A DNA stretch of 64,000 nt from Naegleria gruberi. Taxonomy: Eukaryota. The notes under the pieces were generated by a model, which searched no databases, had not been told where the DNA came from, and was given only the letters and a program-made list of their open reading frames with translations. The position numbers and the translations under genes were made by a program. Shown here piece after piece: positions 30,874 to 62,025 of the stretch. Every line of letters starts with the position of its first letter. Within the stretch, counting starts at the first letter, position 1. The stretch lies in the NCBI GenBank assembly GCA_000004985.1, contig GG738893.1; one strand, 5' to 3'.

Positions 30874-31587
30874 TCTTTTTGTTTTGAAGAGATAATAATC
30901 AAAGAAAATGATTGAGCATGATTGTTGTTTATTGATCCGAAAGTGACCAAAGAATAAAGTGGATTGGTTCTGATGGATTACGGCAATAATATTCTTATTC
31001 GAGAAAATTACGAACCGCTCAAACAGTTCTCAAAAATCTGTGTTAGATTGCAGTAATGGAAGAATAAGAAAGACCTTTGGTTTGGTGCATGTTCTCTAGG
31101 CAGTGACTCTCTCAATTTATTGAGAGCATTTGAATCAGAACACTTATTAAATTTCTTGTGTTCATCTTCGATATGAACGAAGAACTGGCTTCCTTCTTTT
31201 CTTTTGTCATCTCATCTCGTAACAGACACAGACCACCTTAGAGTGTTTGGAATAGGGAAGTGTTTCAGATTAGTTTGTTAGAAATTTCAAATGCAACATG
31301 GTAAGATAACCTACCCCCTAATTACTACGCTAAAGATGACAGAGGAACTCATTACAAAGTGTTGTTAACCAACACCTATTTATTATCTAGTTTCAAATAT
31401 TTGGTAGTTGGAACACGTAAACAATTTACATCATTATTTGTTAAACCAGAGAGAACAAGCCTTTGCACACGGAAAATGAAAAATAAAATTAGATTTTGAT
31501 CAAGTTCAACCTACAAGCAAAAATCATTGATGGCCTATAAATACACTACGCAGAGACACATCATCTTAAAAAAAATAAATCAAATAA

Positions 31588-34080
<2,493 letters not shown>

Positions 34081-34427
34081 TTCTGTTAAATAAAAAAAGT
34101 AAATATAATTCTTAAATAGGTCATAATTGTAATTTTCACTTCTCATTGTAAAAATTCTGTCTTGGATCATACTAGAAATCACCATTTCAAACAAGAATTT
34201 TTAACAATAACAAGCTCAATTTTTATCTTAATAGAGCGAAGATCTGCACTTCCATACAATTTGTTTAAATTAATGATTGATGTGGAATGCTCAGAGAATT
34301 TTTGTTTCGAAATTTTCCAACATTATAAAAATATTTCAAATTATTGTGTAGTGATACAGCAGATTTTCATTTATTTACAAAATCAACTCTTCTAGAAAAT
34401 CCTTAAATCTGTTCTTGCTAAGAAGAT

Positions 34428-35543
34428 TTACTTCTTATAGGTATCAACTTTCTTTGGTGGTTGATAAACATCAACTTTGGAACAAACTCTTTCCTTCTTT
34501 GCGCAAATACTCTTATCAGCATGCTTTCTACAGACCTTCTTTCCACCAACAAAGTTATACTTGGCACAGACCTTATAACCTTTAGATTTCTTAACACAAA
34601 TCTTCTTATGAGATCTCTTGATACATCTTGCCTTCAAAGTCTTGTATTGAGTACAATATGGCTTGGCAGCATAATCACAACAGAACTTATCTTCTCTGAA
34701 TGCCTTACAAACTCTAACCTTTTCTTTGAGATCACAGAATTTGCTTGGAGTCCACTTGGTACAGAACTTGGCCTTTTCCTTCTTGATACAGAATTTGTTT
34801 CTAACAAATTTAACACACTTCTTTTCGTAACCAATCTTTTTGGCGAATTTGACATTTTCATATCTGGTACAGGTCTTTCTCTTGGCATAGGCAACACAAA
34901 TGGTGTGATATTTCTTTTCCAAAATTTGCTTATAATAATGGTCAATCCAACCCTTATAATGTTTCTTACTAACTGGAACCCATTTTTGAACAGTTCTTGA
35001 GAGTTTCTTATACTTGGCACAATAGGAATGAACAGAATACTTGGCACATCTCTTCTTATGATAATACTTAATCTTTGGAACGTAGGTTTCTTCAACACAT
35101 CTAGCCGAATGTCCATACTTTTTACAAATGAAATGATAAGCATACTCATCACATGCATTATTCTTTCCGTGATGTTTACACAATTCCTTCCATTCATACT
35201 TGGCACACATCTTGTGTTTAGTTACTTTAGTACAGAATTGTTTGTAACCATGACCCAAACAAATCTTTTCATTCTTACTATACTTATCACACTTGTGAAG
35301 TTTCTTATATTCTAAACATTTACCCTTTCCAACAAGTTTCCAATCGCAGCATTCCTTCTTGGTACCAATCCATTCATAATCAACGCATTTACCTTGAATA
35401 GTTTTGTAATGAGTACACTTATTGTAACAATATTGTTGATGATCAGCGTAGGTATCAGTTGGCTTGTTACCCATGACAACAATGGCGGAGAGAGCAAGCA
35501 AAGTCAATCCGAGAAGGATTGGTTTGAGAATAGACTGTTTCAT
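34428..35543 (-). CDS. Secreted Lys/Cys/Tyr-rich tandem-repeat protein (371 aa)
   Basis: Minus ORF from the track. It has an N-terminal signal peptide MKQSILKPILLGLTLLALSAIVVMG. Then come about 25 degenerate repeats with an 11-14 aa period of the form C-x-K-Y-x4-6-C (CAKYEWKELCKHHGKNNACDEY..., CAKYSVHSYCAKYKKL...). It is about 17% Lys and about 13% Cys. Confidence 0.55.
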   Translation of the reverse strand: MKQSILKPILLGLTLLALSAIVVMGNKPTDTYADHQQYCYNKCTHYKTIQGKCVDYEWIGTKKECCDWKLVGKGKCLEYKKLHKCDKYSKNEKICLGHGYKQFCTKVTKHKMCAKYEWKELCKHHGKNNACDEYAYHFICKKYGHSARCVEETYVPKIKYYHKKRCAKYSVHSYCAKYKKLSRTVQKWVPVSKKHYKGWIDHYYKQILEKKYHTICVAYAKRKTCTRYENVKFAKKIGYEKKCVKFVRNKFCIKKEKAKFCTKWTPSKFCDLKEKVRVCKAFREDKFCCDYAAKPYCTQYKTLKARCIKRSHKKICVKKSKGYKVCAKYNFVGGKKVCRKHADKSICAKKERVCSKVDVYQPPKKVDTYKK

Positions 35544-35799
35544 ATTGAGTCAATTAGAATCAATTAGTTTTTTTAATGTTTCGAATAGTTTAGAGACAAG
35601 GTTGAGATTTAAAGATTTTGAAACTGATTTCAGCAGTCAACCTTATTTGGACTAAGAGCCAAACCATTATCAATCTAAACAAGTGATACAGGTCTAATCA
35701 ACTATCTGACCCTGTTTCGTATATTAATCTATTGGGTTCATATTTAAAGTTGGAAATTTATTTGGAAAATGCATTGAATGAAACTTTACATTTTTGAAG

Positions 35800-35966
35800 A
35801 TTTGGTTTCTAATGAGATGTTATTGTAATAAGAAATGTTTCGAGTAATTACATCTCATTAGAAACCAAATACATTATCTAATGAGATGTTATTACTCTTA
35901 TTGTAATAAATACTCGAATGAGATGTTATTACAATAAGAGTAATAAGAAATGTTTCGAATGATTGT
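35800..35966. repeat. Nested inverted/direct repeat block in the divergent promoter between the genes starting at 35543 (-) and 35987 (+)
   Basis: A perfect 21-bp inverted repeat, atttggtttctaatgagatgt (35800..35820) and acatctcattagaaaccaaat (35850..35870), flanks a 29-nt spacer. There are three direct copies of (c/t)(t/g)aatgagatgttatt at about 35808, 35878 and 35916. The segment ttattactcttattgtaataa (about 35889..35909) recurs inverted as ttattacaataagagtaataa (about 35927..35947). gtaataagaaatgtttcga occurs twice (about 35825 and 35942). Confidence 0.6.
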
Positions 35967-35986
35967 AAAGTTGAAACTTTAAAAAA

Positions 35987-37681
35987 ATGGAATCACCACT
36001 AAAGAAGAAGAAATTACATCATCACAATGATGAAGAAAATATTCAAATAATGAATGAACAAGATGATGAAAATGTTAAAATAATATTATCAGATTCTTTA
36101 TACGAAAGTAAACTATTCTCCAATTTACAAAATCAATTCGGAGGAAGAAAATTTAAAGAAATCCAATCCGAACACACATATATTGATCACATTCGCTTCA
36201 CACACGATGTTAAATGTATTCGAACTTGTCCAAAGAAGAAAAATTTACTCCTTCTCCACTATTCTAAAGAACTTTCCATTTATGATTTGGAAAGCAAACA
36301 AGAAATTAGAAACATTCACTTTAAAACAAGTGAAGATTTTGAAATTGATGATCAGGGAGATTTCATCTATTACATTACTAAAGAAGATTATTTAACAAAA
36401 TCTTCCTTATTAGACGAAAGAAGTAAATTAAACACAATTTGGGAAGAGAAGATTAATTATCAAACTTTTATATTTTGTGAATCAAAGAATGAAATTTATG
36501 TAATTGATCATTTTAATACTGAATTTGTAATGATTCATGTATTGGATGTATCAAATGGGGAATTAATTAGGGAAATTGTCTTTCCTATTATGAATTTGAT
36601 TACTGAATGTGATGGTGGACATTTAACTCATGAAATTAATCAATTTTACTATGATGAAAATGGAGGAAGATTCTATCTAGCTTTTGAATCAGTTCTAGTT
36701 GATGATGAAGATTCAGACGATAAAACTATTCATTCTCTTTATGTATTTGAAGAAAAGATTGGTAAAACTAGTAAGATTCATATTAATTATTTAATTTCAA
36801 TGATTGGAATTTTACAAGAGAACTATTTCTTTTGTTTAGATGAATGTAGAAATGTGCATATTTATTCAAAGAATACAAATGAATTGAAAAATTCATTTAC
36901 AATGAATAGTACTGCTCAATGTATTTATTTTGACATGTCAACCAATAGATTATTCCACAAAACAACAAGATGTATTGAAATATTTCAATTAAATATTATA
37001 ACAAAGAATGAGAGTTTTCCAATTAACAGAGAAATGTGTCAAGCTATCAAGAGATTGGGAGGCGAATTTCCACAATATCTTTCACAACATCATCAAGTAC
37101 CAAACACTGTAAATTTCTTGAGGAATATTAATTTCAGAAATACGATTTTGAAATTTGTTGACAATGAAATTAAGGAACATTTCAGTTTAAAAGAATTACT
37201 ATGTAATTCCAATATAGATAATGTGCCATGGGGATATTTAAAACAGCAAAAGTGTTGGTTATTTGTGATTTTTGAGGAGGTTTCGAATATCAATGACTTT
37301 CCAATTTACCTTTGCTCTAGTAAGGATCGACAAATACTGTCAAGAACATACACATTTTCAGAATTTCTCTCTAAATGTACACCAGTTGAACAAGTTTCAG
37401 TTTTAGAACAGGAATATCTCATTGATTTTCATAGTATCTATCAAAATTTATTACAAAAAGGTATCATTCATCCACAAACACGTAAAATCGACCCTAACAT
37501 TCTATTAGCCAAGTATAGAGAAATGGTTTGTAAAAATATTCACATAATCGAGTTGAGAAATCATTTTCAATACTCAACCATTAAATTGGAAAATACTGAA
37601 TATACAAAGATGGATTTAATTGTGGCAGCTGAACGAATTTACTCTGATGCAACAATACCACAATCATTTATTATTGAATAA
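35987..37681 (+). CDS. Hypothetical protein (564 aa)
   Basis: ORF from the track with the ATG at 35987. It has an N-terminal poly-K/H stretch, MESPLKKKKLHHHNDEEN. No assignable domain. Confidence 0.5.
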   Translation: MESPLKKKKLHHHNDEENIQIMNEQDDENVKIILSDSLYESKLFSNLQNQFGGRKFKEIQSEHTYIDHIRFTHDVKCIRTCPKKKNLLLLHYSKELSIYDLESKQEIRNIHFKTSEDFEIDDQGDFIYYITKEDYLTKSSLLDERSKLNTIWEEKINYQTFIFCESKNEIYVIDHFNTEFVMIHVLDVSNGELIREIVFPIMNLITECDGGHLTHEINQFYYDENGGRFYLAFESVLVDDEDSDDKTIHSLYVFEEKIGKTSKIHINYLISMIGILQENYFFCLDECRNVHIYSKNTNELKNSFTMNSTAQCIYFDMSTNRLFHKTTRCIEIFQLNIITKNESFPINREMCQAIKRLGGEFPQYLSQHHQVPNTVNFLRNINFRNTILKFVDNEIKEHFSLKELLCNSNIDNVPWGYLKQQKCWLFVIFEEVSNINDFPIYLCSSKDRQILSRTYTFSEFLSKCTPVEQVSVLEQEYLIDFHSIYQNLLQKGIIHPQTRKIDPNILLAKYREMVCKNIHIIELRNHFQYSTIKLENTEYTKMDLIVAAERIYSDATIPQSFIIE

Positions 37682-37909
37682 ATAATTGATAATTGTAGAC
37701 GAATCCACAATTCGAATTGAAATTAATATCTAGAAATGTTTATTGTAAAAACTCCAGTTGTACATCAATCATAAAACGCAATATCAGCAACTGGAATGAG
37801 AAAGTGTTACATCAAGTAAACTTGTAAATTTAAGTTTAGAATAACTTTTGCATTTAGAGGTGGAGATGAAACGTCTGGGTTGAGTGAACAACACAGAAAA
37901 AAAAATAGA

Positions 37910-39525
37910 ATGCAATCCATTGATGCAGCAGTATCAATCGTGTTGGATAAAACACCATCCAGCCCAAATCTAAAACTAAAGTATGCCCAAGAATTAGAAA
38001 TCAAAAAGAAACAATTCGAATATTTGCAAGATTTATCAGAATGTAAAAAGGAATGTATTCACTATTTTATAGATGAATATCCCATTCCGTATCCTGATGA
38101 TAGAAATTTCATATTAGAAATAGCCAAAAATAATCCTGAATCTATTGGAAAGTTACCTAAAGTTTATTTGAACAATGTTGAATTTGTAAAGTTTTGTCTT
38201 GATAATGATTGTTGGGATTCGTGGACATCAATTCCAGAAGAATGTGAAGAATATATTGAATTGGTGAAAAAAGCTGTATTCAAGTATGCCAATATGTATG
38301 GCTCACTTTCTGAAAATGTCAAAAGTCAAATCGATCCAAAAGAAATGATTGAACATTGGATGCACCTTCCTGATGTTAACCGTCAAACTATCCGATATTG
38401 CCAACAAGAACATTTGCAACATCTCGACAGACAAACACTCAAAGAATTTATTCAAAAAGATTTAACACCAAATATTTCGCATCTCAATTTTCCAATGATA
38501 GAGAAATAGCTCTCTTACTAATCAAACAGAGAAGATACTTTGCCATTGAGATGAAATCTGATTTCAATTGGAAAGAAGATGAAGAAGCATTCGATGCCTT
38601 ACTTTACTCAAAGAATAATTTAGAAATAGTTGGAAGAAAACCAGCTTATTATTCAGTATTGCAATGTGCACCTCAATTCTTTGATGATAGAGAGTTTGTG
38701 ATGAGAATTATCGATCATGATCCGAGTTCGTATTTAAAGTGCTCTGACAGATTGAAAAATGATAAGGAAATTGTACTGAAACTTCTTTCTAAAAATGGAC
38801 AATTGATTGGTAATATTCCGCAATGTTTAAAGGATGACAGAGATATTATTAAGGCAACTCTATCGTCATATTCAGGATACTTTAATTATTTATCAGAAAC
38901 TTTTAAAATGGATAGAGAATTAGTTTTAATTGCTTTGAGAGCACCTAAACCTTTTTTTGGAGCTCAAACAGTTGATAAGAGTTTTTACAATGATCCAGAA
39001 ATAATAGACTTGATTATAAGATCAGGTTATATTGAAAAGATTGATGATTTTTCAGATTTCACAGTAGATCAAATTAAGGATTGTGTTGATTCCAATACTT
39101 ATACGCCAGAGCTAAAAAATTACTTTAGAAATGCATCATTTTCTGATTGTCTGGAAGTTATAAAACACAATCCAAGTAGTTGGACTTATTGGGATGGTTG
39201 TCAGGACTGTCCGTTCATAGATGAATTGGTTTTGACCTATATCCAACATTTGAATCCAGATTGGTATTGTTTGCCTTACAGTTATCAATTCAAAAGCATT
39301 GAACAATTCAAGAATATTATTCGATATGATGTGAATGGTGAATTTTTACTTTGTAATGCACCAAAGGATGCATTGAATGATAGGGAAATTGCAATGCACT
39401 ATGTAAAATGCCGTCCGAAAACTGTTTTTCCGGAATTAAGCCCAGAAATGCAATCTGATCCAATTATTAGAAAGGAGGCAATCAAGAATGGATTATTGAA
39501 TGCAAGCTTTATTCCATTGAAATAA
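37910..39525 (+). CDS. DUF4116-type repeat protein, interrupted by an apparent 1-nt frame disruption near 38455
   Basis: ORFs 37880..38509 (frame 2, with the first ATG at about 37910, MQSIDAAV) and 38398..39525 (frame 1) overlap. Both carry the same roughly 35-aa repeat, for example NDREIALLLIKQ, DDREFVMRIIDHDPSSYLKCSDRLKNDKEIVLKLLSKNGQLIGNIPQCLKDDRDII, DRELVLIALRA and DREIAMHYVKCRP. The frames can be joined across the A5 run at about 38455-38459 (...LKEFIQK/RFNTKYFASQFSNDREIAL). No GT-AG intron is visible there. Confidence 0.5.
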
Positions 39526-41094: not shown

Positions 41095-41175
41095 TTGCAG
41101 AAGGTGGGATTTGAACCCACGAAGCTTGCGCAGTAGAACTTGAGTCTACCCCCTTTGACCACTCGGGAACCCCTG
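41095..41175 (-). tRNA. tRNA-Leu (anticodon CAA), type II with a long variable arm
   Basis: The reverse complement reads GCAGGGGTTCCCGAGTGGTCAAAGGGGGTAGACTCAAGTTCTACTGCGCAAGCTTCGTGGGTTCAAATCCCACCTTCTGCA. The acceptor stem is GCAGGGG/CCTTCTGC with 2 G-U pairs. The anticodon stem is GTAGA/TCTAC, with loop CTCAAGT. The T arm is GTGGG-TTCAAAT-CCCAC. There is no encoded CCA. Confidence 0.85.
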
Positions 41176-41380
41176 CTTACATTAACACTTTTAAAATCAA
41201 TTTTATGTTGTTAAATCTCGCTGCAACAAAGGCAATTACTTTTAGGTTCGTGTTTGGTGAACGTACCAATGATCTCATTGTTATAAATGGCTAATTTCCT
41301 TCATCTAATTGATAAGTTCATTACAATTTATGCGATTTGTGACATTAGATTAGATCTGTCTTTACTCAACACTTAAAAAA

Positions 41381-59398: not shown

Positions 59399-60820
59399 TT
59401 ACATGTTTTCTCCTTCTTCTGCATCACTATTTGTTTCAATTTCAAGATGTGTTAATTGTTTCATTTGACTTAAATAATCAGCTCCCTCTGTACCAATATT
59501 ATTGTAACTAATATCAAGATCTGTCAATTGTTTCAATTCACTAATATACTTTGCTCCCTCATTACCAATATTATTGTATTGAATTTTAAGCATTGTCAAT
59601 TCTTTCAAGTTACTAATATGTTTTGCTCCTTCAGCACCAATACCATTGTAACCAATTTGGAGAATTGTTAACTTGTTCAATTCACTTAAATATTTTGCTC
59701 CTTCATCACCAATCTCAGTGTAGCTCACATAAATACTTGTTAGATTTTTCAATTCACTTAAATGTTTTGCACCTTCATTACCAATACGATTGTCACCAAT
59801 AAAAAGAACTGTTAAATTTTTCAATTCACTTAAATATTTTGCTCCTTCATCACTAATTAATCTATTCCCTTGCATATAAAGCTTTGTCAATTCTTTCATG
59901 GTACTGATATGTTTTGCTCCTTCATCATCAATATCATTGTTCTCAATAAAAAGATTTGTCAATTGCTTCATTTCACTTATATATTTTGCTCCTTCTGAAC
60001 GAATCAAGCTATCACTAATGTAAAGATGTGTTAATTGTTTCATTTCACTGATATATTGAGCTCCTTTATCACCAAGGCTACTATAACTGATATTAAGAAC
60101 TTGTAATTGATTCAATTCACTAATATATTTTGCTCCTTCTGTACCAATATTATTGGACTCAATATCAAGAGTTGTCAATTGTTTCAAGTCACTTATGTAT
60201 TTTGCTCCCTCTGTACCAATATTATTGTAACTAATATCAAGATCTGTCAATTGCTTCAATTCACTAATATACTTTGCTCCTTCTACACCAATATCATTTT
60301 CACTAATATTGAGATATGTCAAGTTTTTCAATTCTCTTAAAAATTTTGCTCCTTCTGTACCAATATTATTGGCATTAACATAAAGATTAGTTAATTGTTT
60401 CATTTCACTAACATGTTTTGCTCCTTCTACACCAATACCATTTTCATTAGTAGTACCCTCAATATTGTCATCAATTTCAAGACTTGTAACATGTTTCATC
60501 AATGCAAAAACTTTAAAATCAAACGCATCAGTCCTTCTCTCAAATTCAAGTGTTGAAATATTTGCTAAAAACTGTCCTTGTGGTGGTTTCATTGTATTTT
60601 CACATCTTAAAAAAACTTTTGACCTTTCGGATATGACAGCAAACCACTGTTTGGAAACAAGTGCACAATTTACCATAAATTGAAAGTCAGAGTTGAAACT
60701 TAAAATTTCAAAGAGTACATCATCATAAAATAGGTTAGGCTTGTGTTTTGGTGATTTGTTGGTATCAACCATGTGATGATTTTCACCAATCACTTCTTCA
60801 GGCATTTTTATTTCATCCAT
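59399..60820 (-). CDS. BspA-like leucine-rich-repeat protein (473 aa)
   Basis: Minus ORF from the track. After an N-terminal roughly 110-aa domain there are about 15 tandem 24-aa repeats L..L.I..N.IG.EGAK.IS.LKQLT. The nucleotide-level repeats are visible as well. Confidence 0.7.
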   Translation of the reverse strand: MDEIKMPEEVIGENHHMVDTNKSPKHKPNLFYDDVLFEILSFNSDFQFMVNCALVSKQWFAVISERSKVFLRCENTMKPPQGQFLANISTLEFERRTDAFDFKVFALMKHVTSLEIDDNIEGTTNENGIGVEGAKHVSEMKQLTNLYVNANNIGTEGAKFLRELKNLTYLNISENDIGVEGAKYISELKQLTDLDISYNNIGTEGAKYISDLKQLTTLDIESNNIGTEGAKYISELNQLQVLNISYSSLGDKGAQYISEMKQLTHLYISDSLIRSEGAKYISEMKQLTNLFIENNDIDDEGAKHISTMKELTKLYMQGNRLISDEGAKYLSELKNLTVLFIGDNRIGNEGAKHLSELKNLTSIYVSYTEIGDEGAKYLSELNKLTILQIGYNGIGAEGAKHISNLKELTMLKIQYNNIGNEGAKYISELKQLTDLDISYNNIGTEGADYLSQMKQLTHLEIETNSDAEEGENM

Positions 60821-61152: not shown

Positions 61153-62025
61153 TTATTCTGCAATATTCTTTTTCAACCAAGTAATAATATTTGTCAAGCA
61201 AGTATCCAAATTCATGGCAGAACTATCGTGTTCATCTTTGATAGTTTCGAACATTGTCTTTTCTTCAAGAGTTAAAGACATTTCTTCGAAACTCTTGTAA
61301 GAAAACTTTTGGATGTGTTTCTTATCTACTTTTGCTTCGAACAAATTTTGAATTGTATAGACCTTTGGAAGTGGGTCTAATTTTTCTTCATTTTCAATAA
61401 TTACATTACAATCATAAAAGTGTCTGATATATCTGTCTAGAGGAATATCAGTAACTTTTCTTCGTTTGACAATTGCATCCATTTTCTCTAATAATGTTTC
61501 CAATGGATGAACACAATCAATTTCAATCTTTGGACACTTATTTAATTGGTGGATTACTGATCTGACATCTCGTGTAACTACACAATTATGTTCATCTAAA
61601 CCAATGTCAATATAAATCTCACCACCTTCCAAATTTCTAACTTGGGATTCAAATTTTACCAGAAATACACAAGTTTCACATTCAGTGTCTAATTCGTTTT
61701 TAATTTTCTCAACGACAACAAAAGGAATTAGTCTCTTTGTGTGTTCAAACACGGCGGCAAAGTACTTTTCTCTTTCTTTCTTGTTTTGTGGCATGTGATA
61801 CTTTAACTCTAAATCCATGAAATTGTTCTTTTTTGGAATTAGTTTTAGATCCATATCCTTGGATTGTCTGTTGGATATGTGAAATACCTTAGAGAGAGTA
61901 GAGCCACCTTTGTAGATTACATCAAACTTTCGAGATAGCCAGTAGAGAATGTGGCTTCTCCAGTAATCAAGTTCTAAATCATACAATTGTTTTGACATAT
62001 CAACAAAATCACTACTTGCTGACAT
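61153..62025 (-). CDS. Nucleotidyltransferase of the AbiEii/DUF1814 type (290 aa)
   Basis: Minus ORF from the track, beginning with an ATG. The N-terminal region ...YWLSRKFDVIYKGGSTLSKVFHISNRQSKDMDLKL fits the family signature KGGTAL.L.Y...R.S.D(I/L)DF of AbiEii-type minimal nucleotidyltransferases. Its composition matches the surrounding genes. Confidence 0.45.
   Translation of the reverse strand: MSASSDFVDMSKQLYDLELDYWRSHILYWLSRKFDVIYKGGSTLSKVFHISNRQSKDMDLKLIPKKNNFMDLELKYHMPQNKKEREKYFAAVFEHTKRLIPFVVVEKIKNELDTECETCVFLVKFESQVRNLEGGEIYIDIGLDEHNCVVTRDVRSVIHQLNKCPKIEIDCVHPLETLLEKMDAIVKRRKVTDIPLDRYIRHFYDCNVIIENEEKLDPLPKVYTIQNLFEAKVDKKHIQKFSYKSFEEMSLTLEEKTMFETIKDEHDSSAMNLDTCLTNIITWLKKNIAE

Follow-up and report, generated by a model that had tools for sequence, protein, structure and literature searches.

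The region considered here is the 443-bp spacer between two divergent start codons, ATG 35543 on the minus strand and ATG 35987 on the plus strand, in a 64-kb stretch of Naegleria gruberi DNA (contig GG738893.1; hereafter the window, to the first letter of which all positions refer). It is the interval that had been described in the earlier note, made from the letters of the DNA, as a bidirectional promoter of 440 bp. The gene on its right encodes a 564-aa protein with an NCBI entry that is identical over the full length, and ATG 35987 is therefore the annotated start; the detectable homologues of this protein are only two, both of them N. gruberi paralogs. The divergent neighbour on the left, NAEGRDRAFT_71888, belongs to a family restricted to Naegleria, with at least four paralogs in N. 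gruberi and members in N. fowleri that are 55-61% identical. Some ~120 bp of upstream sequence is shared between NAEGRDRAFT_71888 and the paralog closest to it (NAEGRDRAFT_74241 type, locus L012).

The surroundings have a GC content of ~32% and include CDC48, EFL1, RGS, PI3K and PPR genes, in keeping with nuclear DNA of a eukaryote. An environmental metagenome contig of 2964 bp (L011; ENA ERZ929261, run ERR1078381, PRJEB11402) is 99.1% identical to the CDC48 locus (31208-34163 of the window) and encodes an identical CDC48 protein; the ERR1078381 sample therefore contains an N. gruberi-like strain. Several other features of the window were also recorded. A 290-aa open reading frame at 61153-62025 (minus strand) matches Pfam AbiEii at E 7.9e-19, with 69 bits where the cutoff is 22.5. 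AbiEii is a nucleotidyltransferase and serves as the toxin in type IV toxin-antitoxin and abortive-infection systems of bacteria; the nuclear DNA of Naegleria thus carries here a gene of bacterial type, possibly acquired by horizontal transfer. The coding sequence at 59399-60820 (minus strand) specifies an F-box-like and leucine-rich-repeat protein and consists of a tandem array of 72 bp (24 aa) in ~13.8 copies with 73% identity. Two overlapping plus-strand open reading frames in different frames (37880-38509 and 38398-39525) each carry DUF4116 repeats and are probably one gene split by an intron or a frameshift. The tRNA-Leu(CAA) gene at 41096-41176 (minus strand) is the sole RNA gene detectable by Rfam or ARAGORN in the window.

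Repeat organisation and folding potential

The repeat complex at 35800-35964 (Table 1) is statistically exceptional yet ordinary in kind. A motif of 17-19 nt, TCTAATGAGATGTTATTAC, occurs in it four times with an invariant 10-nt core (ATGAGATGT); as motif A (TCTAATGAGATGTTATT) the copies begin at 35808 (+), occupy 35846-35862 (-) and begin again at 35877 (+) and 35914 (+), giving the orientation + - + +. The three direct copies of AATGAGATGTTATT listed in the earlier note are found, exact, at 35811, 35880 and 35917, and a fourth copy that was absent from that list lies inverted, with one mismatch, at 35846-35859. Motif A together with a second element, B (GTAATAAGAAATGTTTCGAnTnATT), makes up unit U, the second copy of which consists of 35877-35893 joined to 35940-35964, its two parts being split by 46 nt that are themselves made of the same words.

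Table 1. Features of the divergent spacer and of the two genes that flank it, in window coordinates
Feature	Position	Strand	Remarks
NAEGRDRAFT_71888, secreted Cys/Lys-rich protein, 371 aa, no Pfam domain	34428..35543	-	Divergent neighbour
Left flanking 10-bp direct repeat TGAAACTTTA, or TGAA followed by terminal repeat ACTTTACA	35779..35788	+	
Palindrome 1, left arm ATTTGGTTTCTAATGAGATGTTATT	35800..35824	+	24/25 complementary to 35846-35870
Unit U, copy 1: A motif TCTAATGAGATGTTATT + B GTAATAAGAAATGTTTCGAGTAATT	35808..35849	+	40/42 identical to copy 2
Palindrome 1, loop and first part of unit B, GTAATAAGAAATGTTTCGAGT	35825..35845	+	Contains a TCGA site
Palindrome 1, right arm	35846..35870	+	Sole minus-orientation A motif copy (35846-35862); alternative partner 35877-35897
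Tandem unit V1: A motif, then TTATTA-CTCTTATTG-TAATAA	35877..35909	+	Left arm of palindrome 2 in its final 21 nt
Flipped 9-nt core CTCTTATTG	35895..35903	.	Reverse complement of 35932-35940; flanked by 6-bp inverted repeat TTATTA/TAATAA
Palindrome 2, loop ATACTCGAATGAGATG	35910..35925	+	TCGA site present; third direct A motif starts within it
Tandem unit V2	35914..35946	+	Right arm of palindrome 2 in its final 21 nt (35926-35946)
Unit B, copy 2 GTAATAAGAAATGTTTCGAATGATT	35940..35964	+	115 bp downstream of copy 1; 92% direct repeat
Right flanking 10-bp direct repeat TGAAACTTTA	35972..35981	+	A-run and ATG 35987 directly after
564-aa Naegleria gruberi 'predicted protein' gene	35987..37681	+	100% identity, full length, to NCBI entry

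The tandem units V1 and V2, each of 33 nt and repeated with a period of 37, are identical at 27 of the 33 positions as written and at 32 of them, with a single substitution, once 35895-35903 is reverse-complemented. TTATTA and TAATAA stand on either side of this 9-mer, so that flipping the spacer converts a direct repeat of 21 nt into an inverted repeat of 21 bp without a mismatch. This logic of duplications with strand switches and one flipped spacer had gone unnoticed by the earlier reader, and Tandem Repeats Finder reported nothing in the 443-bp spacer.

Two palindromes lie within the complex. Palindrome 1 (35800-35870) has 25-bp arms, paired at 24 of 25 positions and perfectly over the first 21, around a 21-nt loop, its right arm being a reverse-complement copy (24/25) of the 25 nt that lie 21 nt upstream. 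The perfect 21-bp inverted repeat reported earlier (35800-35820 and 35850-35870, with a 29-nt spacer) is present, while 0.02 such pairs are expected by chance. Palindrome 2 (35889-35946) has perfect 21-bp arms (35889-35909 and 35926-35946) with a 16-nt loop; this second perfect inverted repeat, of which 0.01 are expected by chance, is the 21-nt segment that had been noticed in both orientations. No comparable palindrome was found elsewhere in the window.

Folded as RNA, 35790-35990 gave -66.7 kcal/mol (z = -10.2), and the same segment folded as DNA gave -43.8 kcal/mol (z = -11.1). In a sliding scan of 200 nt over the whole 64 kb, the global fold minimum is at 35776-35975 (-71.4 kcal/mol, against a mean of -32.6 and a standard deviation of 7.7), which corresponds to -6.7 standard deviations after correction for GC content, the stretch having 24% GC. 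The hairpin potential described earlier is thus upheld, though not in the form of one long hairpin, as the two palindromes fold separately into adjoining hairpins of -29.6 and -26.4 kcal/mol. A rival third pairing, 35842-35897 (-23.9 kcal/mol), joins the single minus-orientation copy of the motif with the next plus copy.

The three CpGs of this complex of 24% GC (35841, 35915 and 35956) are all in TCGA context, two of them within the hairpin loops and the third in copy 2 of unit B just 3' of hairpin 2; a further one is present at 35582. Enzymes of cytosine methylation and TET enzymes are present in N. gruberi.

Origin of the repeats

A local mutational origin is argued for by the repeats themselves, since they are strand-switching duplications and one flipped spacer. 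Judged from the sequence, there is about an even chance that 35800-35964 arose at this single locus through several local errors of replication in promoter DNA that is AT-rich and of low complexity, with an effect that would be neutral or mildly cis-acting. The duplications would have been produced by a polymerase briefly copying the opposite strand (template-switch mutations) and would have been accompanied by one inversion of a short inverted-repeat spacer. Such errors would have multiplied the 17-19-nt motif to four copies, the two adjacent near-perfect palindromes being a side effect. A minimal history would require ~4-5 events, the order of which is drawn from a single sequence: the left arm would have been copied in inverted orientation, a return to the template upstream would have duplicated U, and a 9-nt duplication of GTAATAAGA, a 37-nt tandem duplication and the spacer flip would have followed.

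Template switching is recognised by new sequence that is the reverse complement of a segment within ~100 bp at the same locus, and this pattern is found here for 35846-35870 against 35800-35824 (24/25) and for 35926-35946 against 35889-35909 (21/21). In addition, 35895-35903 is the reverse complement of 35932-35940 inside otherwise direct repeats. Perfect hairpin stems can be created by a single template-switching event and existing stems can be repaired by it (PMC5453318, PMC8794818, PMC10710096); the same process homogenises the arms of inverted repeats and inverts their spacers (PMC8604942). As all the copies are 95-97% alike, the events appear to be evolutionarily recent compared with the divergence elsewhere in the spacer. 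Four or five events in 165 bp are many for neutral mutation, and selection for extra copies of the motif could be responsible instead.

The flanks of the complex would also fit another source. Its bracket (an 8-bp terminal inverted repeat with a 4-bp direct repeat, or else a 10-bp direct repeat) is also the pattern left by an inserted element, and a MITE or foldback-like non-autonomous DNA transposon of 189 bp (35783-35971) may have been inserted just upstream of the 35987 gene, which we consider rather unlikely. The same modest weight is given to the associated proposal that the copies of motif A are subterminal transposase-binding repeats and that the palindromes are parts of the element. 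The complex is tightly bracketed by the perfect 8-bp terminal inverted repeat ACTTTACA...TGTAAAGT and by a TGAA/TGAA duplication, and among 1.6e7 position pairs in the 64 kb only 10 brackets are as good; at this frequency ~6e-4 tight brackets around the complex would be expected, an estimate that is optimistic because the region is self-similar. MITEs are typically AT-rich, strongly folding, small and located near gene starts, and the complex, beside a gene start, likewise is small, AT-rich and strongly folding.

The outer terminal inverted repeat at 35783/35971 is, however, short (8 bp), and neither palindrome has a target-site duplication of its own beyond trivial AT/TA. The supposed left terminus, ACTTTA, recurs after the right duplication (ACTTTA-AAAAAATG); with this identity of the two sites a 10-nt direct repeat becomes the simpler reading. 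Towards the left that direct repeat continues imperfectly (AATG(C)ATTG...), which is what local duplication would produce. No second copy of the proposed element, even partial, was detected in the window, the JGI metagenomes or the related loci. Within the window there was neither another match to the complex at up to 3 mismatches nor a copy at the level of 11-12-mers (compare AATGTTTCGAAT at 35575-35586), a result which, with the window amounting to ~0.16% of a 41-Mb genome, excludes only families of roughly 2000 copies or more. In the JGI metagenomes the 21-mer gave 0 matches and the palindrome pattern 3, all of them unrelated hairpins, while the seven 17-mer matches in viral contigs all have unrelated flanks and are attributed to chance. 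The four related loci with Cys-rich genes from ENA metagenomes (L012-L015) contain none of the sub-motifs; the part that can be aligned comprises coding sequence only, plus 120 bp upstream in L012, a locus that ends ~80 bp before the complex. For the MITE-like footprint suggested earlier there is a weak bracket at 35783-35971, but no second copy in the window, JGI metagenomes or related loci. Palindromic footprints of transposon excision were also considered and rejected, the arms of 21-25 bp being far longer than those of typical footprints. Literature searches yielded nothing specific on MITEs, small RNAs, promoters or UTR lengths in Naegleria.

Possible regulatory and transcript-level roles

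A selected cis-regulatory array would account for the repeats in a different manner. According to this explanation, which is unlikely in our assessment, the four copies of TCTAATGAGATGTTATTAC and two of GAAATGTTTCGA would be binding sites of a Naegleria transcription factor for one or both of the divergent genes; its corollary, that the hairpin potential is incidental to paired sites, is regarded as no less doubtful. The invariant core shared by the four motif copies, the situation of the array in a divergent promoter of 443 bp and the maintenance of the repeats at 95-97% identity are consistent with such a function, as is the presence of the 12-mer AATGTTTCGAAT, which overlaps GAAATGTTTCGA, also at 35575-35586, ~32 nt upstream of the ATG of the minus-strand gene. 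A recent origin, however, explains the high identity equally well; the motif is absent upstream of all the other genes of the window and of the related Cys-rich-gene loci, and GAAATGTTTCGA is not enriched in the window beyond the spacer, its count being reached in 5 of 100 shuffles. Promoter elements of Naegleria are uncharacterised (PMC13315211), and none is known with which the motif could be compared. The transcription-factor array is compatible with an origin by template switching. A longer word, AATGTTTCGAATAGTT, at 35575-35590 (~32 nt upstream of the minus-strand ATG), repeats the AATGTTTCGA of both copies of unit B (35834 and 35949); this repetition could be a shared promoter word or chance. 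A heat-shock element, considered for GAAATGTTTC, was rejected on the spacing, which is 4 and not 2.

The position of the complex relative to the transcript bears on whether it can act as DNA or as RNA. In the 200 nt before ATG 35987 there are nine upstream ATGs with open reading frames of 2-18 codons, the last of them 25 nt upstream, and the ATG itself is directly preceded by an A-run (AAAAAA-ATG), a context shared by about half of the 20 further gene starts that were listed for the window. By Kozak's rules, upstream ATGs and stable hairpins severely hinder scanning-dependent translation, and a location of the complex in the 5'UTR is therefore argued against by the nine upstream ATGs in combination with the two hairpins (-26 to -30 kcal/mol). 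The earlier proposal that the 35987 gene would have a very stable stem-loop in its 5'UTR accordingly holds for the stability but is unlikely for the location in the mRNA. The TATA-like word ATAAATAC is found at -82, inside hairpin 2, and the CDC48 gene has the same word at about -80; its use would place the start of transcription within the right arm or beyond it. We infer from these features of the sequence that transcription of the 35987 gene starts downstream of, or inside, the last repeat, so that the cluster, lying upstream of the start, would act, if at all, as DNA and not as an mRNA hairpin. At the DNA level it may serve as cruciform-prone spacer DNA or as a multiplied protein-binding site in the divergent promoter, and its effect on fitness is most likely neutral or slight.

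For the region to act as RNA it would have to be transcribed, either as a translational brake or switch in the 5'UTR or as a pair of Dicer-substrate hairpins giving small RNAs of ~21 nt. Such a role is improbable, and the brake or switch, which would operate through the mutually exclusive pairings 35800-35870 and 35842-35897, is equally so. The stems of 21-25 bp, the loops of 16-21 nt and the stabilities of -26 to -30 kcal/mol on either strand would be appropriate to it, and the sub-threshold Rfam matches are all to miRNA-precursor models, reflecting a generic hairpin shape. Naegleria encodes Dicer-like, Drosha-like and Argonaute homologues (PMC13315211), and new miRNA hairpins have been documented to arise by template switching (PMC10710096). 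Nevertheless, scanning-dependent translation would be almost impossible past nine upstream ATGs and two stable hairpins, no Rfam family reached its threshold (the best match, to unrelated miRNA models, scored 29.5 bits against 56.7), no potential target was present in the window at up to 3 mismatches, and covariation evidence is impossible with a single sequence. No miRNAs or small RNAs have been defined in Naegleria (PMC13315211). It is very improbable, yet conceivable, that both hairpins arose through template switching next to a divergent promoter that is active, and that they are transcribed and diced into small RNAs, in which case they would constitute the first hairpin-derived small-RNA locus (miRNA-like or endo-siRNA) described in a heterolobosean, and a very young one. 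Among other RNA classes, no tRNA was detected at the complex. An H/ACA snoRNA, prompted by the ACATTA linker between the hairpins, was rejected for want of an ACA box 3' of hairpin 2, and also on account of the perfect stems without pseudouridylation pockets and the lack of an Rfam match.

The repeat complex is real but ordinary, and probably neutral or mildly cis-regulatory, and as it stands it matters little. It does offer a clean, dissectable case in which stacked template-switch and spacer-flip events would have made two perfect hairpins out of AT-rich promoter DNA in the nuclear genome of a protist. Its importance would be greater if the 189-bp unit were a new MITE family or if the hairpins were diced into small RNAs. 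It would also matter more if the motif were a transcription-factor site, Naegleria being a genus without defined promoter elements (PMC13315211).

Comparison with known systems

MITEs and foldback elements resemble the complex in being ~190 bp in size, AT-rich, self-folding and placed beside a gene start, with short inverted termini and a direct repeat. The complex differs from them in its single copy in the sequence searched (the 64-kb window, the JGI metagenomes and the related loci), in its termini of only 8 bp and in a 'duplication' that is continuous with a longer, imperfect direct repeat of the kind typically left by local duplication. Young miRNA and endo-siRNA loci that arise from inverted duplications have in common with it the perfect stems of 21-25 bp and the precursor-like lengths of 58-71 nt, whereas functional miRNA genes do not typically have perfect stems or lie in a promoter, and the present hairpins are known from their sequence and predicted fold.

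The products of template switching and of quasipalindrome correction (Loytynoja & Goldman 2017, PMC5453318; Monttinen & Loytynoja 2022, PMC8794818; PMC8604942) share with the complex the adjacent reverse-complement copies that give perfect stems. They share further the occurrence, in both orientations, of a short spacer between 6-bp inverted repeats in otherwise identical tandem units, and the clustering of several linked changes in ~170 bp. The complex is unlike them in that the events are read from paralogous units within one sequence and not from ancestral reconstruction, and in that stacked events and four copies of the motif are present where single events are usually described.

Minute inversions associated with hairpins were reportedly described in plastid non-coding DNA by Kelchner and Wendel in 1996. 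Small inversions at hairpin loops are now routine in plastome papers (e.g. PMC12371153). In these, as in the present case (TTATTA / 9 nt / TAATAA), the loop of a short stem-loop is flipped in place; the flip observed here, in contrast, is nuclear and lies between tandem paralogous copies, where it turns a direct repeat into a perfect inverted repeat of 21 bp.
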